Assembly (NCBI RefSeq): GCF_038051925.1
Contig: NZ_CP150634.1
Coordinates: forward strand, 4,730,864-4,762,863
Source: Methylotuvimicrobium sp. KM2
Lineage (GTDB): Bacteria; Pseudomonadota; Gammaproteobacteria; Methylococcales; Methylomonadaceae
DNA length: 32,000 nucleotides
Direction of reading: 5' to 3'
Shown: in pieces, positions 3,079 through 25,262 of the stretch
Numbering within the stretch: the first letter of the stretch is position 1
Layout of the letters: the number at the start of each line of letters is the position of its first letter
The notes under the pieces: generated by a model
Database searches by the model: none
Told to the model about the DNA's origin: nothing
What the model saw: only the letters and a program-made list of their open reading frames with translations
Program-made: the position numbers and the translations under genes

Positions 3079-3984
3079 TTACCGTTTGCCCGAATCGGCT
3101 TTTTTAGACATCGATTCATAACCGGAAATGACATCGAACAATTCCTCGTCGATACTTCGCTGGCGTGTCTGATTGAAGGTCCGGCTGAGTTCATCCAGCA
3201 GCTCGTCGATATTCTTTTCGGCCCGCTGCATCGCCGCCAGACGACTGGCGTTTTCGCCGGCGAGCGACTCGGCGCAGGCTCTGTACATCGAAACAAAGAG
3301 ATACTCCCGGATCAGGGCTCTCAGAGTACCATCGTAATCGCCGACAGTCTCCGGGAGATTATCGGTTGGCCAAGCAGCCTTGACAAACTTGAGCCGCCAC
3401 GCGGAATCCAGCGGCAACAGACGCAGACAGACCGGCTCATAGACGGCTCCGGCCTCCGATTTAGGCCGGTTATGGAAAAGATAAAGCGAACTTTCATGGC
3501 TCAGTTGCCGGGTTTCGGCTTCGATCAACAGTTGGCCGATCAGCGGTGTAATGGCAGCCACCGAATTGGGCGTCGCAAACACTCCGCTTACCGCTAATCC
3601 GGAGTCGAGCAGATGCCCGTGAATGCGTTCGCCAACGGTCCAGATGACTTGCTCGCCCGCCAATTCTTGTAATCGCTTGACCGCGAATTCGACCAAAACG
3701 TCATTGAACTGTCCGACCAAGCCTTGATCGGTGCCTAAAACGATCACGCCGATCCGGTCCGCAGTTCTGCGCCGCGCGATTTCGCCATAGGCGCCTACGC
3801 CCATCGGCTTTAGGCTCGCCGTCAACGCCAGTTCGACGGTGCGGGCGTAATCCTCCAAGGAACGTACGGCTTCTTCGTATTGAACGATGCTGGAAGCGGC
3901 CAGCGCTTTCATGGTCCGCACGACACTTTTCAGATCGCCCGCGCCTTCGATTTTACGGCGCAACTCGTTCGATGTATCGGTCAT
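3079..3984 (-). CDS. atpG: N-ATPase (atypical F-type ATPase) gamma subunit
   Basis: 301 aa, last gene of the atpDCQRBEFAG cluster. ATGA overlap with atpA. Conserved gamma C-terminal helix ([19 protein letters not shown]). Confidence 0.85.
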
Positions 3985-5504
3985 TTTTGCATCGGCGTCA
4001 GTACCTTGCCGGCGAGTTCGACGATAGCGGCGCGGTTCGAATCGCTTAATGATTCGTCCGACAACAGGCTTTGCCGCAGCGCTTCGGGCAGCTCCCGTGA
4101 TGCATTTCGGACCGCGAGCTCCGCCTCGGGCATCCGGTCCGGCGGTACGGTATCGAACAATCCTTCTGTCAATGCCAGTAAAACCGCTATTTGTTCGGCT
4201 ACCGAAAACGTTTCGAATTCCGGCTGTTTAAGGCAGGTGCGGATACGGCGGCCGTGTTCGATCGTCTTGCGGGTATGTTCATCCAGACGGGTGCCGAAAC
4301 GGGCAAAGGTTTCCAATTCCTCGAATTGCGCGTAAGCCAGCTTCAGGTCGCCCGCAACGGAACGATAGGCGGGGCGCTGGGCCTTGCCGCCCACCCGCGA
4401 TACCGATTTGCCCACATCGATGGCCGGCAACACGCCCAATTCGAACAGGGCCGGCGACAAATAAATCTGGCCGTCGGTAATCGAAATCAGATTGGTCGGA
4501 ATATAGGCGGACAGATTCTGCGCTTCGGTTTCGATGATCGGCAGCGCGGTCAATGAGCCGCCGCCGAGATCCTCATGCAAATGTGTCGCGCGCTCCAATA
4601 ATCGGGAATGAATATAAAAAATATCGCCGGGAAAAGCTTCGCGTCCCGGCGGCCGGCGCAACAATAATGAAAGCTCGCGGTAAGCGCGGGCATGATTGGT
4701 TAAGTCGTCATAGACGATCAGAACGTCGCGGCCTTGCTCCATGAAATATTCGGCTATGCTGGTCGCCGCATAAGGCGCGATATAGGCTAAACCGGACGGG
4801 CGGTGGCCGCCCGTGACCACGACCAGCGTATAATCCATCGCGCCTTTTTCCTGTAGGGTGGCGATCACTTGAGACACGGCCGAAGCCCGTTGGCCGATCG
4901 CGCAATAAATACATAGGACATTTTGATCGCGCTGATTAAGTATCGTGTTGATCGCAATGGAGGTTTTGCCGATTTGCCGATCGCCCAGGATCAGTTCGCG
5001 CTGACCTCGGCCGATCGGGATCAAGGCGTCAATGACTTTAATGCCGGTTTGCAGCGGTACGGTCACCGGAGACCGGTCCATGATCGCAGGCGCTTCGCGC
5101 TCTATGGGACGGCGCTCGCTAAAATCGAGCGGTCCTTTTCCGTCCATGGCATGACCTAGCGGGTCGATCACGCGTCCGATGAGTCCCGTGCCCACCGGCA
5201 CGTCCATTACCCGGCCGGTGCGTTCGACTTCATCGCCGGTTTGCAAATGCCAGTAATCGCCGAGCAACACGACGCCGGCCTCTTCCTCTTCGACATTGAA
5301 GGCAATGCCGTATAAATCGTTCGGAAATCTGACTAACTCTTCAAAACCCACGCCCGGCAAACCGGACACTTTGGCGATGCCGGTAGACACGGTTGTGACA
5401 ATGCCCACCTCTTGCAAGGTCATTTGCGGGCTAAAGGTTTCACGAGCCTGCTTGATGTCCTCGAAGGCTCGCTCCAGAACGTTTGCTAACTGATCAGACG
5501 ACAT
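3981..5504 (-). CDS. atpA: N-ATPase alpha subunit
   Basis: 507 aa. Walker [10 protein letters not shown], plus [45 protein letters not shown], typical of F1 alpha. Confidence 0.93.
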
Positions 5505-6294
5505 GAGTATCGGTTCCGGAATGGCTCTGAGATACGGTTTTAGCCGTTAATGCCCGGCCTATACTGTTCTCAAAGTCTTGCAGGTATCCTGCGATGTTCC
5601 AGGAAAGTTTCCGTCCATTCGCACTCAGTTCGATGCCGCTGATTTGATCTGCATCGACATCGAATTCAATCGTGGCATTAACTTTAAATACGTCGCTGAC
5701 GGCTTGTTTGATCGCGCTTTGCTGTTCCGGCATCAGAGCGAAAGTGCTACGGACCCGGATTGGATCCGGTGAAGCTTGAATTGCATCGCTAAGGCGATTC
5801 TTTTCGGAGTCGTCGAGCGTGTGCAGACGTTGGAGAAAGGCTTCGCAAATACGCTGCTCCAGGCTCACCGAAGCCAAATCGGCTAACGTTTTACGGCTGA
5901 TGGCAAAAACTTCCTCCCGGGTATTTCGCATGAGTTCCCGGTGTAAGCGATTTTGCTCGTTTTTTAGTGCTTGCTGCCAGGCGGAACGAAGCTCATCGGA
6001 TTCGGTTCTTGCCGCCTTGATCAGCTTTTCGCGCTCATGTGCCGCATCATCATGCACTTGTTTCAAAAGACCGTCTCTTTGCCGCTCGAAACGTTCGATT
6101 TTTTCGACATACTCGATGCGCTCTCGTTCGGCAGCAGCCTTGATTTCACGGGCTTCCTCCAATTGCTGCGCTATTTTGGCTTCGCGGTCTTTCAGCGCTT
6201 GCATGACGGGCTTGTAAAGAAACCGTTTCAACAAGGCCATCAAAATCAGAAAATTGACCAGCTGAGCGAAGACCGTGAACCAGTCGATTAGCAT
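5494..6294 (-). CDS. atpF: N-ATPase b subunit (long form; no separate delta gene in the operon)
   Basis: N-terminal TM helix ([22 protein letters not shown]), then a long charged coiled coil. I prefer the ATG at 6294 (AGGA 8 nt upstream, 5 nt after the atpE stop) over the track start at 6333, which would overlap atpE. The 3' end overlaps the atpA start by 11 nt. Confidence 0.75.
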
Positions 6295-6299
6295 GGCTT

Positions 6300-6578
6300 T
6301 TATCCTGCTACTTGGGCTAAGGCATAATTCCAAAAAGGATTAGCGAAGATCAGAATCATCGACACGACAAAGCAATAAATCGCAGTCGATTCGACCATGG
6401 CCAAACCGACAAACAGCGTTCGAGTGATCGTCGCAGCGGCGTCGGGTTGTTGAGCTAACGCGGTTAGCGCCGCAGCAAGAGCGCGTCCTTCGCCGAGCGC
6501 CGGGCCGATACTGCCCAAGCCGATCGTAATGCCGGCCGTGACGATCGACGCAACGGCAATGAAAGCGGTAATATCCAT
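6300..6578 (-). CDS. atpE: N-ATPase c subunit (rotor ring proteolipid)
   Basis: 92-aa two-helix hairpin. IGPALGEGRA (E30) and LAMVESTAIY (E63, S64, T65, Y68). GAGGAG lies 7 nt upstream of the ATG. Confidence 0.92.
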   Translation of the reverse strand: MDITAFIAVASIVTAGITIGLGSIGPALGEGRALAAALTALAQQPDAAATITRTLFVGLAMVESTAIYCFVVSMILIFANPFWNYALAQVAG

Positions 6579-6610
6579 AATGACTCCTCTAATTTTTAAT
6601 AGTCAATTTT

Positions 6611-6965
6611 TACTGTGAAAGTTCGCAGTTTTGCATCCCTTATCTAATTTTTCGATATGCAAAAAACTGCTGTACAAATGTCGGTACCGAGGAGGGTGCG
6701 GTTGCTCGATCGGCAGGCGTCGGCGGCAGGGATAGCCGCCGTCGAGCCTACACGGACGTATTCACCCAGCATCTAAATAAGCCATGATTTTGAATCATTG
6801 CCAAAGACCTATGGAATTTAGGTGCTGGGTTCACGGCGTCCTGTCGGGCGAGTGACCGCACCCTCCACTACCAGAGAACTTTCATTTGCCGGGGCGATTG
6901 TTGGGCCTTCATGAACGTTACTGTAAAAGTACACGATTCGAAGAGGGGCGGTTGTTCGACTGAAT
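6611..6965 (+). repeat. Nested-hairpin intergenic repeat, family 1, copy B plus a truncated second unit, inside the N-ATPase operon
   Basis: 6692-6897 matches 2748-2952 in the same orientation. 6917-6962 (gttactgtaaaagtacacgattcgaagaggggcggttgttcgactga) restarts the unit. It fills the 395-nt atpB-atpE gap. Confidence 0.8.
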
Positions 6966-6973
6966 ATCTTCAA

Positions 6974-7636
6974 TCATGACCGCGTGGCCGCGGCGATATA
7001 AACCGTCGCCAGTATCGTAAAAATATAGGCTTGTACGATGCCGGTCAGCAAACCTAATGCATTCATGATAATCGGAAAAAACAAGGGCGTCACGACCAAC
7101 AATATCGCGACAATCATCGTACCGCTCATCATATTGCCGAACAGACGCACGGCCAATGCCAAGATGCGGGATAATTCACCGATGATATTGAACGGCAACA
7201 TAATCAGCGTCGGCTTCAGGTAGGACTTCAAGTATCCACCTAAGCCTTGTTTGGCAATACCGTAAAAGGGCACCGCGATAAATACGGCGATGGCCAATGC
7301 TGCCGTGGTCGACAATGAACCGGTCGGCGGCTCATAGCCGGGGAAAATCGCAAACAGATTGGCGGTGACAATAAACAAAAATAATGTCCCTAGAAACCCG
7401 AGGTATTTTTCCGGTTGTTTCAGGCCGACTTCTTCGATTTGTTTATTCAGCGTGATGACGATGACTTCTAAAATACTCTGCCAGCGTTTGTGTTCTATAT
7501 CGTTCGTTAGATTTCTGGTGATCAGTATCGCGCCGACAACCAGTATCAACATAATGGCCCAGGTCGTCACAATCGTGCCGTTAAGCTTGATGAAACCGTA
7601 TTGCCAAAAAATGAGCTGATCGGAACTCAAGCGCAT
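6974..7636 (-). CDS. atpB: N-ATPase a subunit
   Basis: 220-aa polytopic protein. The stator Arg motif LALAVRLFGNMMSG is conserved. Confidence 0.9.
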   Translation of the reverse strand: MRLSSDQLIFWQYGFIKLNGTIVTTWAIMLILVVGAILITRNLTNDIEHKRWQSILEVIVITLNKQIEEVGLKQPEKYLGFLGTLFLFIVTANLFAIFPGYEPPTGSLSTTAALAIAVFIAVPFYGIAKQGLGGYLKSYLKPTLIMLPFNIIGELSRILALAVRLFGNMMSGTMIVAILLVVTPLFFPIIMNALGLLTGIVQAYIFTILATVYIAAATRS

Positions 7637-7640
7637 GCGT

Positions 7641-7940
7641 TTATTCCTCCGTCGGTTGGTGCGATATTGCCGGTTTGAAACGGGTCATACGAATTACGAT
7701 AAAACGGGCAACGATAAAACCAAATAGACAAACCAAAAGTCGCTGCCAATGATCGGCGGCCAGCCAATAAAAACCGGCCAACGTGACTCCGGTTCGAAGA
7801 AGTATACTGCTGAAGAACCAGAACCCGGGACGTTTTGACTGAAGCCCTTTTTGTACGGTCCACCAAAGTCCTCCGAAAAAAAACATTCCCAGCAAGGTGC
7901 CGGCTCCGAAAGCCAGTGCCAACATCAGATTTTCAGTCAT
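7641..7940 (-). CDS. atpR: N-ATPase accessory membrane protein AtpR
   Basis: 99 aa, about 3 TM helices. Its position between atpQ and atpB is diagnostic of N-ATPase operons. It overlaps the atpQ stop by 8 nt. Confidence 0.75.
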   Translation of the reverse strand: MTENLMLALAFGAGTLLGMFFFGGLWWTVQKGLQSKRPGFWFFSSILLRTGVTLAGFYWLAADHWQRLLVCLFGFIVARFIVIRMTRFKPAISHQPTEE

Positions 7941-8271
7941 CTTTTTTATCCTGCTTTTTATGGATTCGAATATCTTCGTTGGATACCCAGCGCCAGGCGT
8001 TCCAACACCCCAGCATCAGCCCGCCAATCAATAACATCAAGGTCCAGGAATGAGGCCCCGGATACCGGTCATCCAGCCACAAGCCTAAAAATACTCCCAG
8101 CAATGCCGGCACCGCGACCGACCAGCCGATCAAGCCGAACCACCCCAAGCCGAACCAGATCGTCTTATTCACTTGCCGTTGGGCTTCAAGTTTACGCTCG
8201 GCCTTTGCTCCGACTTGACGGCTCAAGGACGAGTCCTTAGGTCGCTTTTTTTTATCGTTTGGCTCAGCCAC
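7933..8271 (-). CDS. atpQ: N-ATPase accessory membrane protein AtpQ (AtpZ/AtpI-like)
   Basis: The GTG at 8271 overlaps the atpC stop (ATCGTGGCTGA) and gives VAEPNDKKKRPKD... with two TM helices (IWFGLGWFGLIGWSVAVPALLGVFLGLWL; WTLMLLIGGLMLGCWNAW). The longer 190-aa track ORF lies inside atpC in another frame. Confidence 0.7.
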   Translation of the reverse strand: MAEPNDKKKRPKDSSLSRQVGAKAERKLEAQRQVNKTIWFGLGWFGLIGWSVAVPALLGVFLGLWLDDRYPGPHSWTLMLLIGGLMLGCWNAWRWVSNEDIRIHKKQDKKDD

Positions 8272-8668
8272 GATGATACTCCATAAAGCGCCGGACGAAA
8301 CCGCTTTCCAGTTTAGCCATGACCGACCGGACGCTTTTTTCGTGTTCGTCGAGCTCCAGAAATTCGCGCTCCACGGCTTCGCGCAATCGATCCAATTCGA
8401 TACCGCCGATGGCATTGCGCACCGATACCAGCACCTCGGTTCCGGTCTTGACCAGCATGCCTTGATCGATGGCCAGATAAACCTCGCCATCAGCTGCCGT
8501 TTCATAGGTTAGAATGCCCGGAGCCAAGGCTGCCGCGCAATCCAGGCGGTTCGGCAGTATGCCGAACGAACCTTGATATGTCTCGGCAACGATCCGAGTG
8601 ACGCCCTCGTACTCGGCGAATACCCGGAAAGGCAACAGGATTTTAAGATGCATCGATGACGAGTTCAT
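8264..8668 (-). CDS. atpC: N-ATPase epsilon subunit
   Basis: Position and size fit F1 epsilon. The ATG at 8668 (MNSSSMHLKILLPFRV) is 8 nt downstream of the atpD stop with GTGAGG upstream. The track start at 8695 would overlap atpD by 20 nt. Confidence 0.8.
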   Translation of the reverse strand: MNSSSMHLKILLPFRVFAEYEGVTRIVAETYQGSFGILPNRLDCAAALAPGILTYETAADGEVYLAIDQGMLVKTGTEVLVSVRNAIGGIELDRLREAVEREFLELDEHEKSVRSVMAKLESGFVRRFMEYHRG

Positions 8669-8675
8669 AGTGGCC

Positions 8676-10127
<1,452 letters not shown>

Positions 10128-10142
10128 TTACTTAATAGGGGC

Positions 10143-10160
10143 TATATTAGCGCTAATATA
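10143..10160. promoter_or_regulatory. Perfect 18-bp palindrome TATATTAGC/GCTAATATA upstream of atpD (candidate operator or promoter element)
   Basis: Read directly: tatattagcgctaatata, 82-99 nt upstream of the atpD ATG on the minus strand. Confidence 0.3.
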
Positions 10161-10180
10161 CCCATCGTAGATCAAAATTC

Positions 10181-10277
10181 GGCACCGGGGTATCCGTCAA
10201 AGGACGCCGTGAATACGTCCCTGTAGGCTCTATGCCAGCTCCATGCTGGCAAAGCCTTTGCCGAGCACCCCGGCGCC
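10181..10277 (-). repeat. Hairpin repeat, family 1 core, copy D (inverted orientation)
   Basis: Arms ggcaccggggtatccgtcaaagg / cctttgccgagcaccccggcgcc. The reverse-complemented core gagcctacagggacgtattcacggcgtcc matches the cores at 2800-2822, 6743-6765 and 27054-27066. Confidence 0.7.
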
Positions 10278-10316
10278 TCCTCAGGCACTGCCGAAATTTG
10301 AAGTGCGAAAGGTATA
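10269..10316 (+). repeat. 48-bp direct repeat, family 3, copy 1
   Basis: cccggcgcctcctcaggcactgccgaaatttgaagtgcgaaaggtata matches 13095-13142 with 2 mismatches. Confidence 0.8.
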
Positions 10317-10488
10317 TAACGATGAGCGGTCCTCCGTGGGAACCATGCGTTGGCTGCCGAAACAAGATCTGTTTGCATTCCTATGCTGGATCGGTGGGAA
10401 CGAGGAAATGGAAAAGTCCGAGTCGATGAGCCTTAAATAGTCGGGCATTTTCTATATTCCGAGCCGTCAAAATAAAAATGGCGCCTGA

Positions 10489-11970
10489 TTAGGACAAATT
10501 TGCATGCTTTTCTTCAACCATCTCGCTGATCAAGGCCATCACTTCGGCGCTGGCATCTTCCGACTGTTGCATGTCGCTGATTATGTTGTCGATGATTGCT
10601 TTGTTGCTTTGCCAGTTGTTTCGTGAATATTCATAGGCGCGTCGCGTGAATTTATGCACATCTTCGTGAGGTTTATTCAGCCTGGCATAGGCTTGCGTGG
10701 ATCTAAATTGCTCATGCCCAAGCCCATCGAAATACCATTTGCCAAGCCTGCAATGCTGATGATCGACATCGATCGCATCGGCTTGCGGACAACGCTTTAG
10801 GTTTTCGATCGCGATATAGCCGTTCTGTTTATAAACAATATGATCGACTTTGGTTAATAGTGCAAAGGTTTTATCCTTGGCATAACTGATATAGCCGACC
10901 GACGCTTTTGCCGAAATTGAAAGATCGGCAAACTGACTCCGAAATTCGTCGACTTTTTCCATGATTTCTTGGGAAAGTTCGGCGGATGCCTCGGCTTCGG
11001 AATGCATTTGATTGACGCGCTTATTGAATGAATTGAGTGTTTTAGTAACCTCCAGCGCCGCATTCTTAGTATGATCGGACAAGTTTTTGACTTCTTCCGC
11101 GACGACCGCGAAACCACGCCCATATTCGCCGGCTCGTGCAGCTTCGATCGAGGCGTTGAGTGCCAACAGATTGGTTTGGTCGGCGATACCGGTGATCATC
11201 GATAAGGATTCGGTTACTTTTTTACTATCGTCGATCAGTGCGGTAATGACATCGGTAACCGAATGAATATTGTCATTGATATTGGTTAACGAATGGCTAA
11301 TTGTATTGACCGACGACAAGCTATTTTCGGCGTTATTGCCGGTATTAATCGCGATGCTTTCAACCTTATGCATTTGTTCGGTAATGCTCAGTAGGTCTTC
11401 CTGATTGGATTTGAGATTATCGAGTAAATTCGAGGTATTCAGCAGGTGCAGTCCGGCAGAAAGGCGATTTTTCGTGATCATCGTTTCATTATCGCTCATG
11501 ACTCGCAGTGCTTTATTGACCGATTTCGCTGACGATTTAAGTAAGCCGGGAAAGCCGTCCGCAAGAGCGTAACGGTTATGATTGCCTTTGGCCGCTTGAT
11601 CGAAACAAGTCGTGATTTCCTTGAAATAAGACTCCATGATGTCGAGCATTTCGTTCAATTCCCAAGCGATTTTGCCGAGCTCGCCCATTCCCTTGGTTCT
11701 TGTGATTCGGTGGTAAAGTTCGCCGTCATTGGTTTTAATTAATACATCTTGGATGATGGCAATAATACGCAAATATTTTTTTGTTTCTGTGAGCGCGTAA
11801 AATGCAATGACGGTGAGTCCAAGGTTAAAGAGGAGAACTAGCCATGAAAAGCCGCTGGTAAAAGTCGTGTAAAAAAAATTGATCGCAGCGAGGAAACTAA
11901 TACCGGCCACGGCATAATTAACCTTGGCTTCGAGAAAAGGAATGTCGGCACTGGTGTGGCGGCTCATCAT
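10489..11970 (-). CDS. Methyl-accepting chemotaxis protein: N-terminal TM hairpin, no periplasmic domain, C-terminal CZB (chemoreceptor zinc-binding) domain
   Basis: Signalling hairpin tip [37 protein letters not shown]-terminal [10 protein letters not shown]...HEDVH matches the CZB H-x3-C-x-L-G-K-W motif. Confidence 0.88.
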
Positions 11971-12509
11971 TAAACTCCATTCGGTTTATAAAGCCCCAGA
12001 ACGAGACTGTCATAATTTTTGGCGCCGGTCTGCGCGACGACATCGAATAAATAGGCCAGCGATTTGTCCGGAGCTTCTTTCGCGGAACAGCCTTTTTCTA
12101 TCGCCAGCATTTCCCGATAAACCGGCACCAAAACATCCAACGCCGACGTCGGCGGTTTGCGCCTAACCGAATAATAACCCTGCAATTTGCCGTCTTTGTC
12201 GTAGTCCGGCGTAATATTCGCGAAGACCCAATAAAACCCACCATCTGAACACAGGTTTTTGGCAAAACCGAAAAATTCGTTTCCGGACTTTAAGGTATCC
12301 CACATAAACCGAAATACGCCGCGCGGCATTTCGGGATGCCGAATAATATTGTGTTGCACGCCAAGCAATTCGGACTCGGCGTATCCGGCAATTTCCATGA
12401 AAATACGGTTAGCGTAAGTGATTTTGCCGCTAATATCGGTTTTCGAAACGATAAAGTCGTTATCGCCCAGTTTCTTTTCGTCATTATTCGGGATAATATT
12501 TTTTTTCAT
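11970..12509 (-). CDS. Stand-alone Aer-type (FAD-binding class) PAS domain protein, translationally coupled to the MCP
   Basis: [68 protein letters not shown] aligns with the E. coli Aer PAS core (HNMVRHPDMP). The stop overlaps the MCP start (TAATG). The ATG at 12509 gives a typical N-terminus. The track ORF extends to a GTG at 12593 that has no SD. Confidence 0.8.
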
Positions 12510-12815
12510 CGTTGTGATGCGCCTTATAAGGTTCGATACATTTTTAGCAGAGTCGATTCCATAAAGTCTAGCTGTTGTAAAAAATATCGCCACCAGCTAA
12601 ATAATTTTCCTCATTCGCACTGCTCCAGCGTGGGAGTGCGTACCTATCTTGCCTGGCAGCGAAGTTATGAGGTCCCACAGAGGGCGCTCATCGTTATACA
12701 TAAATTGTAGGGTTCCTCCAGCCTGCTAAGCTCCGAATCCCTGCCCGGATCAAACCATAAGGGCTTGTGGTAGCATTGGTGGGGTTGCCATGGTACTCAC
12801 AGCCTACCCTATACC

Positions 12816-12837
12816 TCACTGCCATTAAGTTAAGCCG
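12816..12837 (-). repeat. Solo terminal repeat of the family 2 MITE
   Basis: cactgccattaagttaagccgt is identical to the first 22 nt of the 18306-18439 copy. No partner end is nearby. Confidence 0.6.
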
Positions 12838-12931
12838 TCACAGAATAAGTAATTCTGGTATTCAGGATCGAATGTACTTCAAAAGCCTGCCATCTATGGC
12901 ACTGGATTCCGTCAGTCCCTCACCTAGCGTT

Positions 12932-13065
12932 CACTGCCATTAAGTTAAGGATTTTTCCGTTCGCCCTGAGCCTGTCGAAGGGTGAATGGAAAAATCCTGG
13001 GTCGATAAGTTAAGCCGTCCATGGTTCGACAGGCTCACCACGAACGGCTTAACTTAATGGCAGTG
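12932..13065 (+). mobile_element. 134-bp MITE, family 2, copy 1
   Basis: 18-bp terminal inverted repeats cactgccattaagttaag / cttaacttaatggcagtg and two internal hairpins. Flanked by the 12-bp direct duplication tcacctagcgtt (12920-12931 and 13066-13077). Confidence 0.85.
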
Positions 13066-13094
13066 TCACCTAGCGTTAGGTGAGGGATCGACAT

Positions 13095-17705: not shown

Positions 17706-18128
17706 ATGAATGCCTTAACTCTGGAAAAAGCCAATCAAATCATTCATGTCGCATTAACCAATGCCCGCCAACTCAACCTAGAACCGCTGACCGTGGTCGT
17801 ATTGGACGAAGCCGGTCATCTCAAAGCGATGCAACGCGAAGACGGCGCCACGATGATTCGAGAGCAAGTCGCGATCGCCAAAGCGTGGGGCGCGGTCAAC
17901 ATGGGCATGTCGTCGCGAAATCTTGCCGCCGTCGCCGAGCAACGCCCCGACTTCATGAACGCGCTGATCGGCTTGGCCGACGGAAAAGTCATGCCCGTAC
18001 CGGGCGGCGTACTGATTCGTAATGCCGACCACAAAATTCTCGGCGCGGTCGGAATCTCCGGCGACGTCTCCGACCAAGACGAGCGCTGTGCGATCGCCGG
18101 AATCCACGCGGCCGGTTTATTTTGCTAA
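17706..18128 (+). CDS. GlcG/HbpS-like (DUF336) putative heme-binding protein
   Basis: PVPGGVLIRNADHKILGAVGISGDVSDQDERCAIAGI matches the GlcG family signature. The ATG at 17706 directly follows the TTG used by the ORF track. Confidence 0.75.
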   Translation: MNALTLEKANQIIHVALTNARQLNLEPLTVVVLDEAGHLKAMQREDGATMIREQVAIAKAWGAVNMGMSSRNLAAVAEQRPDFMNALIGLADGKVMPVPGGVLIRNADHKILGAVGISGDVSDQDERCAIAGIHAAGLFC

Positions 18129-18305
18129 GGAACGAGCATGAAATAACTTCATTCTAATATCGCAAGGAAGGAGGATTCGATTGACAGATGTCGGCCGCAC
18201 GCCCCGAAGCCACCTTAGATAAAACTGAAACAAAAACAAACCGCATCGTCATTCTTGTCGCATTGGTCGCCATGCCAATCGACTTATCTTCCCCACGCTA
18301 GTGCG

Positions 18306-18439
18306 CACTGCCATTAAGTTAAGCCGTTCGTGGTGAGCCTGTCGAACCATGGACGGCTTAACTTATCGACCCAGGATTTTTCCATTCACCCTTCGACAGG
18401 CTCAGGGCGAACGGAAAAATCCTTAACTTAATGGCAGTG
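18306..18439 (-). mobile_element. 134-bp MITE, family 2, copy 2 (inverted)
   Basis: Its reverse complement is identical at 134/134 positions to 12932-13065 (checked block by block). Flanked by the 12-bp duplication cacgctagtgcg (18294-18305 and 18440-18451). Confidence 0.9.
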
Positions 18440-18714
18440 CACGCTAGTGCGTGAATGTAGGCGAGTTTGCCCTGAATTGCGGGTGTGATGAGCTCGTGCG
18501 TCAAGTCGAGCAACCCCATGTCCCTATTGATCTCATTCACCACCAAACCGATCGCGCCGAATGAGCAAAGTATCGCATCCAGGTCATCGGCGTAACCGCC
18601 ACCGCCGAGCCCAAAATTCTGAGCGGTATTTTGCACGCTCGCCACGTCGAGGTATTCCCTTTCTATTGAAAAAACGTCTAAAAATGAAAAGATATGGGGA
18701 TATCTAGCGATGTG

Positions 18715-18742
18715 TTGTGAAGTTAAGCAATTTCCCTATAAT
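18715..18742 (+). promoter_or_regulatory. Candidate sigma70 promoter of the hydrogenase operon
   Basis: TTGTGA (18715-18720), 16-nt spacer, TATAAT (18737-18742), 31 nt upstream of the small-subunit ATG. Confidence 0.4.
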
Positions 18743-18773
18743 GCAATGATTTACTTCAAATGAGACGAAAACG

Positions 18774-19715
18774 ATGGCTACCTTATTCTGGCTACAGACA
18801 GGCGCCTGTGGCGGCGATTCGCTGGCGCTATTGAGTGCTGAATCACCGAGCCTCGAACAAATTTTTTCGGCTCACGGCGTTGAATTGCTATGGCACCCCT
18901 CGTTGTCCGGCGCGTCGATGCGCGAGCACGACGCGCTGCTCGAACGCATCGTCAACGGCGAACAAGCGTTGGACATACTTTGCGTCGAAGGCAGCATCGT
19001 CACGGCCCCGCGCGGTACCGGTCTGTACGACAGCTACCGCGGCCGGGCGCGCATGGACATCGCGCGTGAATTGGCAGAGCGGGCCGGTACGGTCGTCGCG
19101 ATGGGCACCTGTGCTGCCTACGGTGGCGTTCATGCCGCGGCGCCGAATCCGGGCGATTGTATCGGCCTGCAATACAACCGTTCGACTCCGGGCGGTCTGT
19201 TGCCGCCGGAGTGGCGTTCGCGCGCGGGCCTTCCTGTCGTCAACGTCTCCGGTTGCCCGGCACATCCCCACGCCATGACCCAGACGCTGGCCTGGCTCGC
19301 CGCCGGACTGCCGTTGCCGCTGGACGAACTGAATCGTCCTAAGGCGTTCTTCAATACCGTCGTTCATCAAGGGTGTACGCGTAACGAGTATCACGAATAC
19401 GACATCGAAGAAAACGAACCGGGCGGGCGCGCCTGTCTGTTTTTCAATCTCGGCTGCCAAGGGCCGATGACGCAGGCGGTATGCAACAGCGATCTGTGGA
19501 ACGGCACCAGCAGCAAGACTCGCGCCGGCGTGCCTTGTTTCGGTTGCACGTCGCCGAGCTTCCCTCGCGACACCGATTTGTTCTTGACTGAGAAAATCGG
19601 CGACATTCCGTTGCGCTTGCCGCTGGGCGTCGAACGTCCCCGGTACATGGCATACAAGAATCTTGCCCGCGCCGCTGCGCCGGAACGCGTCAAAGACAAG
19701 AAAATGGACGTTTGA
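18774..19715 (+). CDS. [NiFe]-hydrogenase small subunit, cytoplasmic (no Tat leader), group 2 sensor-like
   Basis: Starts directly at MATLFWLQTGACGGDSLALL. FeS-cluster motifs MGTCAAYGG, SGCPAHP, HQGCTRNEY, CLFFNLGCQGPMTQAVCNSDLWNG and GVPCFGCTSP. No RRxFxK motif. Confidence 0.9.
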   Translation: MATLFWLQTGACGGDSLALLSAESPSLEQIFSAHGVELLWHPSLSGASMREHDALLERIVNGEQALDILCVEGSIVTAPRGTGLYDSYRGRARMDIARELAERAGTVVAMGTCAAYGGVHAAAPNPGDCIGLQYNRSTPGGLLPPEWRSRAGLPVVNVSGCPAHPHAMTQTLAWLAAGLPLPLDELNRPKAFFNTVVHQGCTRNEYHEYDIEENEPGGRACLFFNLGCQGPMTQAVCNSDLWNGTSSKTRAGVPCFGCTSPSFPRDTDLFLTEKIGDIPLRLPLGVERPRYMAYKNLARAAAPERVKDKKMDV

Positions 19716-19716
19716 G

Positions 19717-21246
19717 ATGGCTACGATTGAAGTCAACATCAATTTGAACCGCGTCGAGGGAGACCTCGAAATCGCTTTGGTGCTCGACGACGGCGTCGTC
19801 ACGGAAGCTCGGACCGTCGGCACACTGTATCGCGGTTTCGAGCAGATCATGATGGGCAGGGCGCCCCGCGATGCGTTGGTGATCACGCCGCGGGTCTGCG
19901 GCATTTGCGGTACGGCTCATCTTTACTCGGCAGTGCTCGCGCTCGAACATGCCTGGCGGACGCCGGTGCCGCCGAATGCGACGCGCATCCGCAATCTTTG
20001 CCTGATTGCCGAAGGTATACAGAACGATTTACGTCAAACCTTTCTGTTTTTCGCGCCCGATTTTTGCCATCGGCGTTATAGTCAGCACAGCTGGTTCGAC
20101 GATGCGGTCGACGCTTTCGAACCGTTTCGCGGTTCGATTTATCTCGAAACGTTGGCTCAAACGCGGAAAGCGGTCGAAATCGTCGCGCATTTCGGCGGGC
20201 AATGGCCGCATTCATCCTATATGATACCCGGCGGCGTGACGACGCCGGCCGATCTGCGCCGGCTGTTGGCCTGCCGCTCGGTATTGGATGAGATTCAGCG
20301 CTGGTACGAACGGCGCGTCATCGGCGCTTCGCTCGACGATTGGCTGGCCTTGGAAGATGCCGAGCGCTATTTCGCTTGGCTCGATACGCCGGCGCATGCC
20401 GGCAGCGCGCTGGGTTTGATGAGCCGCGCGGCCCGCTCGCTCGGCCTACACCTGTGCGCCTCGGGTACGCCGCACATGCTCAGCTATGGCGCCTGGTGCG
20501 ATCCCGACCGTTGGTCCGCGCCGCACGACGCGCGTTTGCTGCCGGGCGGTTTCTACGACGGCGGAAGCGGCACGGTCGGGCCATACGATCAACAACTGAT
20601 CAATGAGCACGTTCGTCATTCCTGGTTCCGGCCTTATGACGGCGGGCGGCATCCGTGGAACGGCGAAACCGTCCCCGATTTTCAGCCGAACAGCGACCGC
20701 TACACTTGGGCGAAGGCGCCGCGCTACGGCGATAAGGTGGTGCAGACCGGACCGTTGGCCGAGCTGCTGATCGGCGGCGATGCACTGATTGCGTCGCTGC
20801 ACCAGGCCGAAGGCGGCAGCGCTTGGCTTCGACAATTCGCGCGGGTCAGGCGAATCGCCGTCGAATTGAAGCAAGCGCGACTGATACTCGACGAGTTAAC
20901 AGCGAATCTACACGAGCCGCATATTTTGAATCCGGCCAAAACACAGGAAACCGACGGAGAAGGATACGGTCTGATCATGGCCGCGCGCGGGGCGCTCGGG
21001 CACTGGCTCAAAATCAAAGACGGTGTCATCGAAAAATATCAAATCATCACGCCAACCGCGTGGAACGCCTCTCCTAGAGACAGCGGAGGCTTCCCGGGGC
21101 ATTGGGAGCAAAGCCTAGTCGGACTGAGCGTTCAGGATCCGGACGATCCCGTAGAAATCGGGCATGTCATTCGCTCCCACGATCCGTGCCTAGTGTGCAC
21201 GGTACATGTGCTGAACACCGGCACGAGGCTACGTTTCGGGCCATGA
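19717..21246 (+). CDS. [NiFe]-hydrogenase large subunit
   Basis: N-terminal Ni-Fe ligand motif RVCGICGTAH and C-terminal DPCLVCTVH, followed by a 12-aa tail (VLNTGTRLRFGP). The ATG at 19717 (MATIEVNINLNRVEGDLEI) is 1 nt after the small-subunit stop. Confidence 0.92.
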   Translation: MATIEVNINLNRVEGDLEIALVLDDGVVTEARTVGTLYRGFEQIMMGRAPRDALVITPRVCGICGTAHLYSAVLALEHAWRTPVPPNATRIRNLCLIAEGIQNDLRQTFLFFAPDFCHRRYSQHSWFDDAVDAFEPFRGSIYLETLAQTRKAVEIVAHFGGQWPHSSYMIPGGVTTPADLRRLLACRSVLDEIQRWYERRVIGASLDDWLALEDAERYFAWLDTPAHAGSALGLMSRAARSLGLHLCASGTPHMLSYGAWCDPDRWSAPHDARLLPGGFYDGGSGTVGPYDQQLINEHVRHSWFRPYDGGRHPWNGETVPDFQPNSDRYTWAKAPRYGDKVVQTGPLAELLIGGDALIASLHQAEGGSAWLRQFARVRRIAVELKQARLILDELTANLHEPHILNPAKTQETDGEGYGLIMAARGALGHWLKIKDGVIEKYQIITPTAWNASPRDSGGFPGHWEQSLVGLSVQDPDDPVEIGHVIRSHDPCLVCTVHVLNTGTRLRFGP

Positions 21247-21710
21247 GTAATCGGCAATTATGTCATATCGTTTGCTTCGGTAATCCGCTCCACGGTGATG
21301 ACGGTTTCGGTCCGGCGGTTTACCAACGGCTAGCGGCGCTGCCGCTGCCGGATAACGTGCGCGTGTTCGACGCCGGAACGCCCGGTCTGGCGGCATTAGC
21401 GCTATTTCAAGGATGCCATGAGGTGATGGTCGTCGACGCCGTCGCATCGGGCGGCATACCAGGGAAATTAAGCCGATTATCGCCGAATGTTGTTACGGCC
21501 GAAATCACGTTACCGGGCCACGGCATCGGCGTAGGCTATTTGTTAAAGGCCGTTGCCGCGTTGCCGGACTGCCCACGCATCGAGATCATCGCAGCGGAAA
21601 TCCTTGGAGCGGCACCGTTCCGTCCGGGCTTGTCAAAACCGGTGCGCCAAGCTGTCGACGATGCCTTCGTTCTACTGGAAAAATATGCCGAGCAAGTTTC
21701 CCGTCAATGA
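21243..21710 (+). CDS. Hydrogenase maturation endopeptidase (HupD/HoxW/HyaD family)
   Basis: MSNRQLCHIVCFGNPLHGDDGFGPAV...VMVVDAV...GHG matches the family pattern. ATGA overlap with the large subunit stop. Confidence 0.85.
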   Translation: MSNRQLCHIVCFGNPLHGDDGFGPAVYQRLAALPLPDNVRVFDAGTPGLAALALFQGCHEVMVVDAVASGGIPGKLSRLSPNVVTAEITLPGHGIGVGYLLKAVAALPDCPRIEIIAAEILGAAPFRPGLSKPVRQAVDDAFVLLEKYAEQVSRQ

Positions 21711-24354
21711 ATCGCACCTAAATGAGGAGCTGACGCGTTTGCGGGTCGAATTCGAAGCGCTTCGAATCGCCAACGCGGCGCTCGAGCAACAATTGTCGAT
21801 CGACGCCAAGCAGGCCGATTCGATGCTGCGGGTGCTCGAAATACGTAGTAACGAGCTAAAGGAAGCCAACCTACATCAGCTGAATCAAAGTAATTTCATC
21901 CGTCGCGTCATGGATTCGACCGGCGCGATGATGATCGTGCTGGGACCTGATGGGCATATACGCCAAGTCAATCGGCGTTGCGCGCAGGAGTTGACCGGAA
22001 CCGATTCGATTCCGGACAATCGCGTGCTGGACGACTGGTTGCATCCCGACGAACGACAAGCGCTTGTCGCACAAGCGATCGGTTTGCCGTGGCCCGTTTT
22101 TTCTCCGCTGTTCGAAGTCGTGCGGCGTTCGGGTTCCTATGCCGCTGAGCACCGTCTGGCAAGCCGCGACGGAAGCTATCGCCATTATTGGTTTGAGGCG
22201 AGTATGCAACACAACCCTCAAGGCAAAGAAGAAGGCGCCGTCATTTGCGCGAGCGATATCACGCGGCTCAAACAACAACAAGAGCGATTGAGCCGAAGCG
22301 AAAAACGCCTGAAAGAGGCGCAAAAAATCGCCCGCCTGGGGCATTGGGAAATGGATTTGACGTGCGACAAACTCACTTGGTCGGAGGAAGTGTGTATTAT
22401 TTTCGAGCTCGATTCGGCTTCGATACCCCGTAACTATGCGGACTTTCTCGAACTCGTCTATCCAGCCGACCGGGCCGCAGTCGACCGGGCTTTCACATCC
22501 GCCCTAAGCACGCATGGTTCTTACGACATCGAACATCGTCTGTTAGCGGCCGGCGGACAAATTAAGTGGATACACGAACGGTGCGTCATCTACTATGACG
22601 ATGCCGGGCGGGCTTTACGGTTGGTCGGAACGATTCAGGATATCACCGAGCAACGCTTGGCCGAAGAGCAGTTGCGTCTTGCGGCGAGCGTCTTCGACAA
22701 TAGCCTGAATGGCATTCTAATCACCGATGCGAATACGCGCATCGTCAAGGTCAACCGCATGTTCAGCGAAGTCATGGGCTATTCGTCCGACGAGGTGTTG
22801 GGACAAAAACCGAGCTTGCTGAAATCCGAGCACCACGATAAGCAATTTTATCGCAGTCTGTGGGCCGCACTCGAACGGGACGGCAAATGGCAGGGTGAGA
22901 TTTGGGACCGGCGTAAGAACGGCGAACTGATACCACTGTGGCAAAATATATCGTCGGTGCGCGACGCCATCGGACGCGTGACGCACTATATCAGCGTCTT
23001 TTACGATTTAACCCAACAAAAGCAAAGCGCGAAACATATCTACCATCTGGCCTATTACGATGCCTTGACCGAACTACCGAACCGGCAGTTATTCAACGAG
23101 CGCTGCGAGCATGCACTGGAGAGGGCGAATCGCGACTACCATCCGCTGGCAGTTTTGTTTCTTGATCTGGACCGGTTCAAGCACGTCAACGACAGTCTCG
23201 GGCATCCGGCCGGAGACGAGCTTTTGCGCATGGTCGCACACGCAATCAAGAGTTCTTTGCGCCAAGACGATACGGTCGCGCGCTTGGGTGGCGACGAATT
23301 CATCATTTTGCTCGAAAATACCGGGAGCCGCTCCGATGTCGAACAGGTCGCCCTCAAAATCATTGCGCACCTCTCTAGACCTTTCATCGTTCAAGGCCAT
23401 AAGCTGGAGATCGGCACGTCGATAGGCATCAGTTGTTATCCTGAGGATGGCAAAGACACCATGTCCTTAATCAAACACGCCGATCTTGCGATGTATCGAG
23501 CCAAGGAAAAAGGACGCGGTAATTTTCAGTTTTACGAAACGTATCTAACTACGCGCGCGAAAGAACGTCTTTTTCTCGAAAGTGAGCTGCGCGACGCACT
23601 GGAACGCCAGGAATTCCATCTTCATTACCAACCGCAATTCGCCTTATCCGGCGGCGAATTGATCGGAGCCGAGGCTTTATTGCGCTGGAATCATCACGAG
23701 CACGGCCTGATCGCGCCCGACAAGTTCATTCCGATCGCCGAGGAATCGGGGCTGATCGTCGCGATCGGCGAATGGGTGCTATCGGCCGCATGCAGTCAGG
23801 CCAAGGCATGGCTCGACGCCGGTTACGCATTCAAACAGGTCGCGGTCAATCTGTCCGGCGCGCAGATCGAACGCAGCGATATTTTGGCAACGGTCGGCAA
23901 CGTCCTTGCAACAACGGGACTGCCTCCCCAGCACCTAGAGCTCGAAATCACCGAAACCTATATCATGCGTCAAGCGAAACAGAACGTTCGTATCATGGAA
24001 GAGCTTCGCGCATTGGGCGTGAGCCTGGCGATCGATGATTTCGGAACCGGGCAGTCGTCGCTCAGTTATTTGAAACGCCTGCCGGTCGACAAGTTGAAAA
24101 TCGACCGTTCATTCGTGATGGATATTCCGCAAGATAGCAATGATATGGCCATTACCCGAGCGATTCTCGCACTCGGACACAGTTTGAAACTAACCGTTTT
24201 GGCCGAGGGTGTCGAAACCGCAGAACAAGCGGCTTTTCTTAACGAATTAAAATGCGACGAAGTGCAGGGCTATTATTACAGCCGCCCGCTGGACGCCGAA
24301 AGCTTCCGGAAGCTATTGGCCAAGCAAAAGTTCGATGCAGATCTTTCTGATTGA
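21685..24354 (+). CDS. Cytoplasmic coiled-coil + 3x PAS + GGDEF + EAL protein (c-di-GMP synthase/phosphodiesterase)
   Basis: Three PAS modules, RLGGDEF with an RQDD I-site 5 aa upstream, and EAL motifs EALLRW, DDFGTG, KIDRSF, EGVE. No TM segments. The start is 21685 (MPSKFPV) or 21661; either overlaps the endopeptidase gene. Confidence 0.9.
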   Translation: MPSKFPVNESHLNEELTRLRVEFEALRIANAALEQQLSIDAKQADSMLRVLEIRSNELKEANLHQLNQSNFIRRVMDSTGAMMIVLGPDGHIRQVNRRCAQELTGTDSIPDNRVLDDWLHPDERQALVAQAIGLPWPVFSPLFEVVRRSGSYAAEHRLASRDGSYRHYWFEASMQHNPQGKEEGAVICASDITRLKQQQERLSRSEKRLKEAQKIARLGHWEMDLTCDKLTWSEEVCIIFELDSASIPRNYADFLELVYPADRAAVDRAFTSALSTHGSYDIEHRLLAAGGQIKWIHERCVIYYDDAGRALRLVGTIQDITEQRLAEEQLRLAASVFDNSLNGILITDANTRIVKVNRMFSEVMGYSSDEVLGQKPSLLKSEHHDKQFYRSLWAALERDGKWQGEIWDRRKNGELIPLWQNISSVRDAIGRVTHYISVFYDLTQQKQSAKHIYHLAYYDALTELPNRQLFNERCEHALERANRDYHPLAVLFLDLDRFKHVNDSLGHPAGDELLRMVAHAIKSSLRQDDTVARLGGDEFIILLENTGSRSDVEQVALKIIAHLSRPFIVQGHKLEIGTSIGISCYPEDGKDTMSLIKHADLAMYRAKEKGRGNFQFYETYLTTRAKERLFLESELRDALERQEFHLHYQPQFALSGGELIGAEALLRWNHHEHGLIAPDKFIPIAEESGLIVAIGEWVLSAACSQAKAWLDAGYAFKQVAVNLSGAQIERSDILATVGNVLATTGLPPQHLELEITETYIMRQAKQNVRIMEELRALGVSLAIDDFGTGQSSLSYLKRLPVDKLKIDRSFVMDIPQDSNDMAITRAILALGHSLKLTVLAEGVETAEQAAFLNELKCDEVQGYYYSRPLDAESFRKLLAKQKFDADLSD

Positions 24355-24479
24355 AGCCGGGTACGTAAAGTGCGTGTTTCAAAAGCCCCCTGTGTCAGGA
24401 TAGTTGTCGCATGAGTTATTGAGACTTTATAAAATCTATGGCTAAAATGCTGATTTGATTATGTCAAGGTACCCGAATT

Positions 24480-25262
24480 ATGGCATTACCGAGAACTTTG
24501 GGACTGGGTAGCCCATTATTGAATTTACCTCGAAGCTTTAAACCCATTTCTTCCCCAACTGAGCAACCGGTTTTCAGGCTTTCTCTTCGGCAACAGATGT
24601 TTTCTCTGGGGCTTTTATTTACGCTCAGTTTATTGGCTGCACTGGCGATGGCGGCTTATTTTTATCCGAGCATTGCGAGCAATGACAAAGTAGTCGCGAA
24701 CATCGTTCGTAATATCGGCTTCGGCGGCGGCGTTTTCGGCTTTAGTTTGGTATTACTGACCGCTTTTTATCGGCACTGGGCGTCTGTAACCGCGCCGTTA
24801 TATGCCTTAGCGGGCGGGGTGTTCATGAGCGGATTGGCGCTTTCACTTGAACAACGTTTTCCTGGCATTGCCGTACAGTCTTTGGTTGTGACATTCAGCA
24901 TCGCTTTGGTAATGTATGCGTTGTATGCGACCGGTGTGATTAAAGTAACGCGAAAACTTTTTGTGCTGATTTACGCCGCGGCGGCTACTATCGCGCTGGT
25001 TTATTTGGTGGGATTTACCGCATTGCTTGCCGGTGTGCCCTTGCCTTTTTTGCATGGTGCCGGTGTGGGCGGGATGCTTTGGTTTGGCTTTATCGTCGTG
25101 ACCGCATCGTTAAATTTACTAGTCGATTTTCGTCGTATAGACAATGCTATACAACGCGCTCAACCTTCGTGGATGCGCTGGTACTTGGGACTGGGCATGC
25201 TAGTGACCTTAGTGTGGATGTACATTTCGGTTCTGAGGCTGATTGCAAATGCTAGACGATGA
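24480..25262 (+). CDS. Bax inhibitor-1/YccA-like integral membrane protein (COG4760-type)
   Basis: 260 aa, about 7 TM helices. The C-terminal WMRWYLGLGMLVTLVWMYISVLRLI resembles the conserved end of this family. The assignment is from memory of that pattern only. Confidence 0.55.
   Translation: MALPRTLGLGSPLLNLPRSFKPISSPTEQPVFRLSLRQQMFSLGLLFTLSLLAALAMAAYFYPSIASNDKVVANIVRNIGFGGGVFGFSLVLLTAFYRHWASVTAPLYALAGGVFMSGLALSLEQRFPGIAVQSLVVTFSIALVMYALYATGVIKVTRKLFVLIYAAAATIALVYLVGFTALLAGVPLPFLHGAGVGGMLWFGFIVVTASLNLLVDFRRIDNAIQRAQPSWMRWYLGLGMLVTLVWMYISVLRLIANARR

Follow-up and report, generated by a model that had tools for sequence, protein, structure and literature searches.

We analyzed a 32,000-nucleotide stretch of the Methylotuvimicrobium sp. 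KM2 genome (assembly GCF_038051925.1, contig NZ_CP150634.1, forward-strand positions 4,730,864 to 4,762,863; hereafter the window, numbered from its first letter), and found in it a four-gene [NiFe]-hydrogenase operon, predicted at 18774–24354 on the + strand, that probably builds a cytoplasmic H2 sensor with cyclic di-GMP (c-di-GMP) as its output. The operon encodes a small and a large hydrogenase subunit, a maturation protease, and a signaling partner with GGDEF and EAL domains, and the sensor reading draws on observed gene content, motifs, phylogenetic position, conserved gene linkage, and homology to the sensor kinase HoxJ. Neither the idea that H2 acts on c-di-GMP nor the hydrogenase class, group 2c, is new, since both were published in 2016 as a prediction, and the window holds a typical member of the class so described. 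Greening et al. reportedly named group 2c 'diguanylate cyclase-linked (putative)' in 2016. HydDB (Sondergaard et al. 2016) lists [NiFe] group 2c as 'diguanylate cyclase-linked (putative)' (PMC5037454). Added here are the swapping of outputs, a shared HoxJ-like input module, Rieske fusions, and an Asp ligand in the small subunit, and as comparative sequence evidence these considerably strengthen the sensor hypothesis and sharpen it.

The four genes are co-oriented and tightly packed. The small-subunit gene (18774–19715, + strand, 313 aa; Pfam Oxidored_q6 and NiFe_hyd_SSU_C) is separated by 1 nt from the large-subunit gene (19717–21246, + strand, 509 aa; Pfam NiFeSe_Hases, 1.5e-84), the junction reading TGA-g-ATG. 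The large-subunit gene overlaps by ATGA with the gene of a maturation endopeptidase of the HycI/HybD family (21243–21710, + strand, 155 aa; TIGR00072, 3.6e-29), and the signaling gene (21685–24354, + strand, 889 aa) starts 26 nt within the protease gene. An alternative ATG for the signaling gene lies at 21661, and the N-termini of homologues favor 21685. No convincing internal terminator was found within the four genes, which are predicted to form one operon. An initial annotation of this DNA had described the same packing, with an overlap of at least 26 nt at the last junction, and all three junctions read as it stated. It had started the unit at 18715, a position that proved not to be coding and to mark instead the −35 hexamer of a sigma-70-like promoter candidate (TTGTGA-16-TATAAT, 18715–18742, + strand), 31 nt 5′ of the small-subunit ATG. 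By consensus match, this candidate agrees at 10/12 positions and is the joint-best + strand site in 18100–24600. A scan of the same interval against Rfam returned no riboswitch and no other RNA family. Open reading frame (ORF) and protein family scans of the 32-kb window gave no cytochrome b, diaphorase, extra iron-sulfur (FeS) subunit, or hyp gene, and no HoxJ/HupT kinase or response regulator, HoxA/HupR activators included, in agreement with the annotation, which had reported a partner for energy conservation, the kinase, and the response regulator all to be missing.

For placement of the large subunit, a neighbor-joining tree (100 bootstraps) was built from 86 large subunits, comprising 80 genome loci at 43–97% identity plus references. 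There were only five references (HoxC and Paracoccus for 2b, Mycobacterium and Bradyrhizobium for 2a, HoxG for 1d), and Methylobacter tundripaludum SV96 was the single literature anchor for 2c. The definition of 2c was taken from the HydDB table (PMC5037454) and the Thiomargarita paper (PMC4853749), in which Methylobacter tundripaludum HupL was the top hit underlying the group 2c call. The window sequence fell with M. tundripaludum SV96 in a clade of 68 sequences (the window and 67 genome loci, hereafter the core clade) at bootstrap 100 in this five-reference tree, outside the 2b references (own clade, bootstrap 99) and outside the Huc-type 2a references (own clade, bootstrap 100), the latter being one of the contrary placements that the annotation had considered. 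Its label 'group 2c-like' is supported by the grouping with M. tundripaludum, and so, on a distance tree with five references and one literature anchor, is the assignment of the large subunit to group 2c. The published 2c consensus for the L2 motif is SFDxCLVCTVH (PMC4853749); the window motif, SHDPCLVCTVH, differs from it once (H for F), and is the same as the Thiomargarita sequence termed 'most consistent with group 2c' in that paper. The large subunit is 99% identical to a Methylotuvimicrobium alcaliphilum protein, and none of its best 120 database relatives falls below 64% identity, with identities of ~39% to Huc-type 2a enzymes, 35% to HoxC of Cupriavidus necator, and 35–37% to 2b overall. 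The closest solved structure is Huc (PDB 7UTD, E = 4e-106), and none of the Huc-type accessory genes (NifU, NHL, HucM-like) was found in the window. Adjoining the core clade is a subclade (bootstrap 100) of metagenome-assembled genomes (MAGs) from Verrucomicrobiae, Mycobacterium, Thermoleophilaceae, and Nitrospinota (L062, L066, L067, L069–L071), in which the small subunit is truncated, without the medial and distal cluster region, and carries Glu rather than Asp at the proximal position described below; no signaling partner was found in these loci, and a HypB/CobW-like gene is next in L062. This subclade may represent a distinct, undescribed cytoplasmic hydrogenase type.

The large subunit carries both Ni-Fe ligand motifs that had been read in it, RVCGICGTAH and DPCLVCTVH, with Ni ligands C61/C64 and C491/C494, and ends in a tail of 12 aa after H497 (VLNTGTRLRFGP). 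A protease gene follows the large subunit in 66/67 core-clade loci, the remaining locus (L017) ending 80 nt past the large subunit, and no protease gene follows the 2b large subunits compared. The gas-gate pair I63/F111 aligns with I62/F110 of HoxC, the corresponding residues being V/L in HoxG and I/L in Huc. Across the core clade, I63 is present in 67/67 members; 57 of them have F at position 111, and the other 10 have M. The Ile/Phe pair has been described as that of O2-resistant H2 sensors (review, PMC11023054).

The small-subunit ORF begins MATLFWLQTGACGG and aligns with HoxK only beyond the twin-arginine translocation (Tat) leader of HoxK, that is, over the mature part. Since ORFs were called from the first start codon after a stop, no upstream in-frame extension is possible, and the small subunit therefore cannot extend upstream to take in a Tat leader. 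The ORF limit and the HoxK alignment both agree with the earlier view of a small subunit without twin-arginine leader and a cytoplasmic enzyme. At the proximal cluster, the ligand segment reads C12-G-G-D15, in which Asp15 replaces the second Cys and leaves 3 Cys; in the alignment, the segment is CGGD in the window, CGGC in HoxB, and CSGN in HucS, and the Asp is found in the clade members that cover the segment (12-member alignment sample). The medial cluster has 3 Cys (4 in HoxB), and the distal cluster, with His + 3 Cys, is intact. From these ligands, the proximal cluster may be an Asp-ligated 4Fe-4S or a 3Fe-4S cluster, and the medial cluster looks 3Fe-4S-like. The features looked for in a functional NiFe heterodimer are encoded (four Ni-Fe cysteines, small-subunit FeS ligands, maturation protease), activity being a prediction from sequence, and by its residues the predicted enzyme joins a sensor-like gas gate to an otherwise complete Huc-like electron relay.

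Linkage to a signaling gene was assessed by a forward census of the 67 core-clade genome loci, using strand-aware ORF calling and tblastn domain mapping, and 63 of these loci had enough sequence to be assessed. A signaling gene directly follows the protease in 63/63, with GGDEF(-EAL) partners in 31/63 and histidine kinases in 32/63, so that a histidine kinase is missing at the window locus but present in about half of the clade. The same gene order with a GGDEF-EAL partner was found in Ideonella, Gallionellaceae, Sedimenticola, Methylobacter, and Neptuniibacter. In the nearest non-identical relative of the window (L004, a Methylomonas MAG, 78% identity), which groups with the window and L003 at bootstrap 100, a hybrid kinase stands where the window has GGDEF-EAL, so that the hydrogenase has stayed the same while its output was exchanged. 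Pfam analysis of representative kinase partners gave hybrid kinases with REC and Hpt domains, and one CheA-like kinase. This linkage across the clade strengthens the case for a sensor, and supports, as far as gene neighborhoods can, the candidate H2 to c-di-GMP module that the annotation had proposed.

More distant relatives of the hydrogenase are also followed by signaling genes, a PAS-SpoIIE (PP2C phosphatase) gene in L077 (Leptonema MAG, 9010–10407) and a CheA-like Hpt-HATPase kinase in L064 (Polyangiaceae MAG, 8991–10979). L080 and L081 (Nitrospinaceae and delta-proteobacterial MAGs), in the deepest branch at 44% identity, have a hybrid kinase after the large subunit, with a 146–149-aa ORF of unassigned family between the two genes, no protease detected by homology to that of the window, and a separate GGDEF gene ~3.3 kb downstream. 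On the same branch, the partner fragment of L082 (Desulfobacterales) was not matched by the hidden Markov model (HMM) of the input module described next.

What the partners share is an N-terminal module, located in the window partner at aa 9–206 (21709–22302, + strand), in which a coiled coil with the sequence LRIANAALE is followed by PAS1 with GLPWPVFS and QGKEEGAV. The corresponding signatures across the clade are LRxANxALE in the coiled coil, and LPxLPWxVxS and QGKxEGAV in the PAS domain. The module HMM gave 271 bits in the window partner and matched 63/63 core-clade partners at full length (E = 1e-41 to 1e-83), compared with at most 26 bits (median 9) for the 72 other PAS domains of the partner set. 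Pairwise identity of the module follows that of the large subunit, with a Pearson coefficient, used descriptively only, of 0.91. The module is homologous to HoxJ aa 16–177 (hhalign probability 96%, E = 2.8e-9, 162 columns), and its HMM scored 36.5 bits on HoxJ and 46.1 bits on a Paracoccus HupT-like ORF; in many kinase-type partners it runs straight into HisKA, as in HoxJ. The PAS region of HoxJ binds the regulatory hydrogenase, and by this homology aa 9–206 is likely the docking element on the hydrogenase. The annotation had expected one of the three PAS domains to dock, and its link to a PAS domain stands, narrowed to the N-terminal coiled coil with PAS1.

The association was also examined in reverse, by fetching metagenome loci with the module alone (7-sequence alignment). 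The small subunit, large subunit, and protease lie immediately upstream of the module in 10/11 of these loci. The sole exception (L096, 6001–6582) has a kinase-fused module of 39% identity, with a carboxypeptidase and a hydrolase as neighbors and no hydrogenase in the 6 kb upstream. An exhaustive library search of representatives with the module returned 1933 relatives, with 113 clusters at E ≤ 1e-10, and Pfam domains in 67 full-module representatives were HATPase_c (42), Rieske (17), GGDEF (12), EAL (11), and SpoIIE (4). In one full-module representative, the HycI protease is fused to the sensor module, which is either a natural fusion or read-through of overlapping genes.

These data bear on a different explanation, that the operon encodes a metabolic cytoplasmic hydrogenase, by which H2 is recycled or evolved with a soluble carrier encoded elsewhere, and that the GGDEF-EAL gene is merely co-operonic or regulates expression. 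Such an enzyme would be in keeping with the C-terminal tail, the protease, and the full relay of three clusters, the distal one with its His ligand, all seen in catalytic enzymes, and with respiratory Huc as the closest solved relative; a passage of PMC7716213 also cites H2 production by M. alcaliphilum 20Z under O2 limitation, and the sister subclade of L062, L066, L067, and L069–L071 is free of signaling partners. That subclade, however, with its truncated small subunit, looks like a different enzyme type, and the window contains no acceptor subunit. The signaling gene is tied to the hydrogenase in every assessable locus, with an output that varies and an input module that is constant, and the reverse association holds with a module homologous to HoxJ. 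That hydrogenase and HoxJ-like module go strictly together in both directions while the output changes, and that no acceptor subunit is present, argues against a purely metabolic role, which we consider quite unlikely.

In 28 core-clade partners, including all those of Methylobacter, a Rieske domain lies ahead of the module, with the ligands CxH...CxxH intact in 27/28. The fusion of such a redox center to the docking module points to electrons from H2 as the signal, and the retention of its ligands argues for such an electron-based signal. The window partner itself is without a Rieske domain, and its PAS1 conserves no Cys or His by which a cofactor could be recognized, so its signal route is put forward here as a proposal.

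Beyond the module, the window partner comprises PAS2 (PAS_3 family in Pfam, aa 230–317, 22300–22674), PAS3 (NifL/MmoS/Aer type, aa 330–450, 22672–23034), a GGDEF diguanylate cyclase domain (Pfam 7e-54, 23050–23520), and an EAL phosphodiesterase domain (Pfam 3e-78, 23584–24288), all on the + strand. The domains and motifs are those that had been read from the sequence before (889 aa; coiled coil, three PAS, GGDEF with RxxD, EAL). The I-site of the GGDEF domain (RQDDTVARLGGDEF) is RQDD, followed by the GGDEF motif, and the EAL domain carries GAEALLR, DDFGTGQS, AEGVE, and QGYYYSRP; the GGDEF motif, the I-site, and the EAL motifs stay intact throughout the clade as they do in the window. By its motifs, the partner is predicted to be a bifunctional diguanylate cyclase/phosphodiesterase. 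Its C-terminal 580 aa gave 730 bits with the NCBIfam DibA model, under the cut-off of 980, and also matched DosP.

PAS2 is restricted to GGDEF-EAL partners of the window's own subclade. PAS3 is present, directly before GGDEF, in essentially every GGDEF-EAL partner with a sequenced PAS region, and is absent from most kinase partners. It shares ~40% identity with the first MmoS PAS domain (3EWK, 4e-26), and also matches PAS1 of NifL (2GJ3, 2e-12) and Aer (8DIK, 2e-8). The PAS domains of MmoS, NifL, and Aer bind flavin adenine dinucleotide, and by this similarity PAS3 is probably flavin-binding. PAS3 was considered as the electron-receiving domain and rejected as the core coupling element, most kinase-type partners being without it. 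The same matches, the constant position before GGDEF, and the Rieske-bearing relatives, which show that partners can hold redox centers, would also suit a combined H2/O2 or redox-poise sensor, in which the hydrogenase reduces the PAS3 flavin, O2 re-oxidizes it, and the output reports the H2:O2 ratio. We regard this as a plausible variant, though an unlikely one. Most kinase partners join the module straight to HisKA, as in HoxJ, with no PAS3-like domain, and PAS3 is therefore not needed for hydrogenase coupling; its flavin binding, moreover, is predicted from homology. From this distribution over the two partner types, PAS3 is read as a second redox/O2 input that belongs to the output cassette and does not itself receive the H2 signal.

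The sensor that we consider likely would work as follows. The protease would mature the large subunit, which would then pair with the Tat-less small subunit, and the narrow Ile63/Phe111 gas gate should let the heterodimer work in an aerobe. The heterodimer would oxidize H2 slowly, with electrons passing the three FeS clusters (3 Cys + Asp15; 3Fe-4S-like; His + 3 Cys). The partner would dock on the hydrogenase via its coiled-coil/PAS1 module, as HoxJ does on the regulatory hydrogenase of Cupriavidus necator, and the H2-dependent redox or conformational state would be relayed along the PAS2–PAS3 helices, shifting GGDEF synthesis against EAL breakdown and hence cellular c-di-GMP. PAS3 would probably add its own redox/O2 input at this stage. 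Docking, electron transfer to the partner, a direction of the c-di-GMP change, and downstream targets are parts of this model that we infer.

Several observations weigh against the operon being an H2 sensor. The large-subunit tail with its dedicated protease, unlike 2b sensors, and the complete relay with a His-ligated distal cluster are traits of catalytic uptake enzymes, and Huc, the closest solved structure, is a metabolic 2a enzyme. The window partner offers neither a Rieske domain nor a cofactor-marking residue in PAS1. No regulated target is encoded nearby, and in the 7 loci compared no conserved target was found 3′ of the partner gene, genes beyond the partner not being conserved. The tree from which the class is read is a neighbor-joining tree with only five references, and a literature search returned no experimental work on any group 2c member, as the initial annotation had also held. 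Set beside the conserved linkage and the homology to HoxJ, these points leave the sensor role well supported by inference from comparative sequence data.

A wider generalization is one that we favor slightly. It holds that group 2c is a large modular family of H2 sensors, with a single O2-compatible type of hydrogenase joined by the HoxJ-like docking module to at least four outputs (GGDEF-EAL, histidine kinase, CheA-like, PP2C), with a Rieske domain, the likely electron acceptor, before the module in about 40%, and with electrons leaving from the distal cluster, and that in aerobic methanotrophs such as M. alcaliphilum H2 would be a signal that sets c-di-GMP and not a fuel. If so, H2 would decide there between a sessile and a motile way of life, and the H2 sensed could be the cell's own fermentative product or come from neighbors at an oxic-anoxic interface. 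H2 would thereby be tied to c-di-GMP, the main switch between biofilm and motility, and this in organisms by which methane emissions are controlled. To our knowledge, the 2b regulatory hydrogenase with HoxJ is the only kind of H2 sensor studied experimentally, and debate continues over how its signal is passed on. The prediction for group 2c dates from 2016, and because M. alcaliphilum is a cultivated model methanotroph, this locus is a practical place for testing it. The comparative results give the H2-sensor hypothesis a specific, testable form, centered on partner aa 1–210, the Rieske orthologues, and D15.

The base composition of the operon differs from its surroundings, G+C being 0.62 in the structural hydrogenase genes, 0.54–0.57 in the signaling gene, and 0.40–0.52 in most flanking DNA (19001–24000 against flanks); taken over the operon, the range is 56–62%, compared with 42–52% in the flanks. 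The G+C-rich operon may reflect horizontal acquisition, which fits the patchy spread of the clade across Gamma-, Beta-, and Alphaproteobacteria. A reading of the operon as a remnant, decaying or horizontally acquired and functionless today, would accord with this G+C contrast, with the lack of hyp genes nearby, and with a repeated palindromic element just upstream. Against it, none of the four frames is broken, the Ni, FeS, GGDEF, and EAL motifs are all conserved, and the junctions are tight, so that gene decay is unlikely; the gene order also recurs, at 97% identity, in a second Methylomicrobium genome. A remnant is accordingly very improbable.

The palindromic element (18298–18447) is an intergenic, nested structure of ~150 nt 5′ of the hydrogenase operon, with arms of 20–26 nt that are 87–92% complementary, and an RNA fold of −86.5 kcal/mol (z = −11). 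A core of 21 nt, CTTAACTTAATGGCAGTG.., is found again in three further copies at 12814–13068 (0 expected by chance), and the element looks like a member of a repeat family of the repetitive extragenic palindrome (REP) or miniature inverted-repeat transposable element (MITE) type.

Elsewhere in the window are an F-type ATPase operon and genes for Trk K+ uptake, a PAS protein with a methyl-accepting chemotaxis protein (MCP), an ABC exporter, a GDSL lipase, one HbpS-like and one BaxI-like protein, and glycosyltransferases/methyltransferases. The ATPase operon (3079–10061, − strand) is complete, includes ATPase_gene1 (AtpI/AtpQ-like), and lies beside TrkA/TrkH (433–2558). It recalls alternative Na+-translocating 'N-ATPase' operons, which would presumably suit a haloalkaliphile. 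At 10489–12593 (− strand), a 207-aa PAS protein is encoded directly upstream of an MCP-signaling protein with a C-terminal CZB zinc-binding domain, and the two look like a soluble chemoreceptor pair.

Among known systems, E. coli DosP and the DibA family resemble the C-terminal 580 aa of the window partner, DibA with a match below its curated cut-off, and NifL, MmoS, and Aer resemble its PAS3. DosP, DibA, NifL, and MmoS, in contrast, are without the hydrogenase-linked N-terminal module and are not encoded in a hydrogenase operon. Group 2a enzymes (Mycobacterium Huc, PDB 7UTD; cyanobacterial HupSL) have a C-terminal tail and a protease in common with the window, and Huc also shares a non-Cys residue at the second proximal ligand position (Asn in HucS, Asp in the window), the 3-Cys medial site, and a conserved C-terminal tail on the small subunit. 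They form a separate clade, and Huc has Leu in place of Phe111; at Huc-type loci the neighbors are NifU, NHL-repeat, and other accessory genes, with no signaling partner among them.

The 2b sensors, HoxBC-HoxJ-HoxA of Cupriavidus necator H16 and HupUV-HupT-HupR of Rhodobacter, are likewise cytoplasmic group 2 systems with the Ile/Phe gate, and HoxJ and the HupT-like ORF have an N-terminal input domain homologous to that of the window partner. The window large subunit nevertheless stands in a separate clade at 35–37% identity, and has its 12-aa tail and protease, whereas 2b large subunits (HoxC, Paracoccus) end at CTVH with no protease gene. Where the window has Asp15 and a 3-Cys medial site, HoxB has Cys at all four proximal positions and one more, the fourth, at the medial site; the 2b output is a kinase feeding a sigma-54 activator where that of the window is GGDEF-EAL, and, unlike in 2b systems, no uptake hydrogenase or hyp genes are adjacent in the window. 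Against HydDB group 2c, nothing essential differs, although the class name omits the histidine-kinase half of the clade, the rarer CheA-like and PP2C outputs, and the one module, often preceded by a Rieske domain, that is shared by all. The window hydrogenase is likewise Tat-less, clusters with Methylobacter tundripaludum, has a GGDEF/EAL gene in its operon, and would serve the same proposed role.

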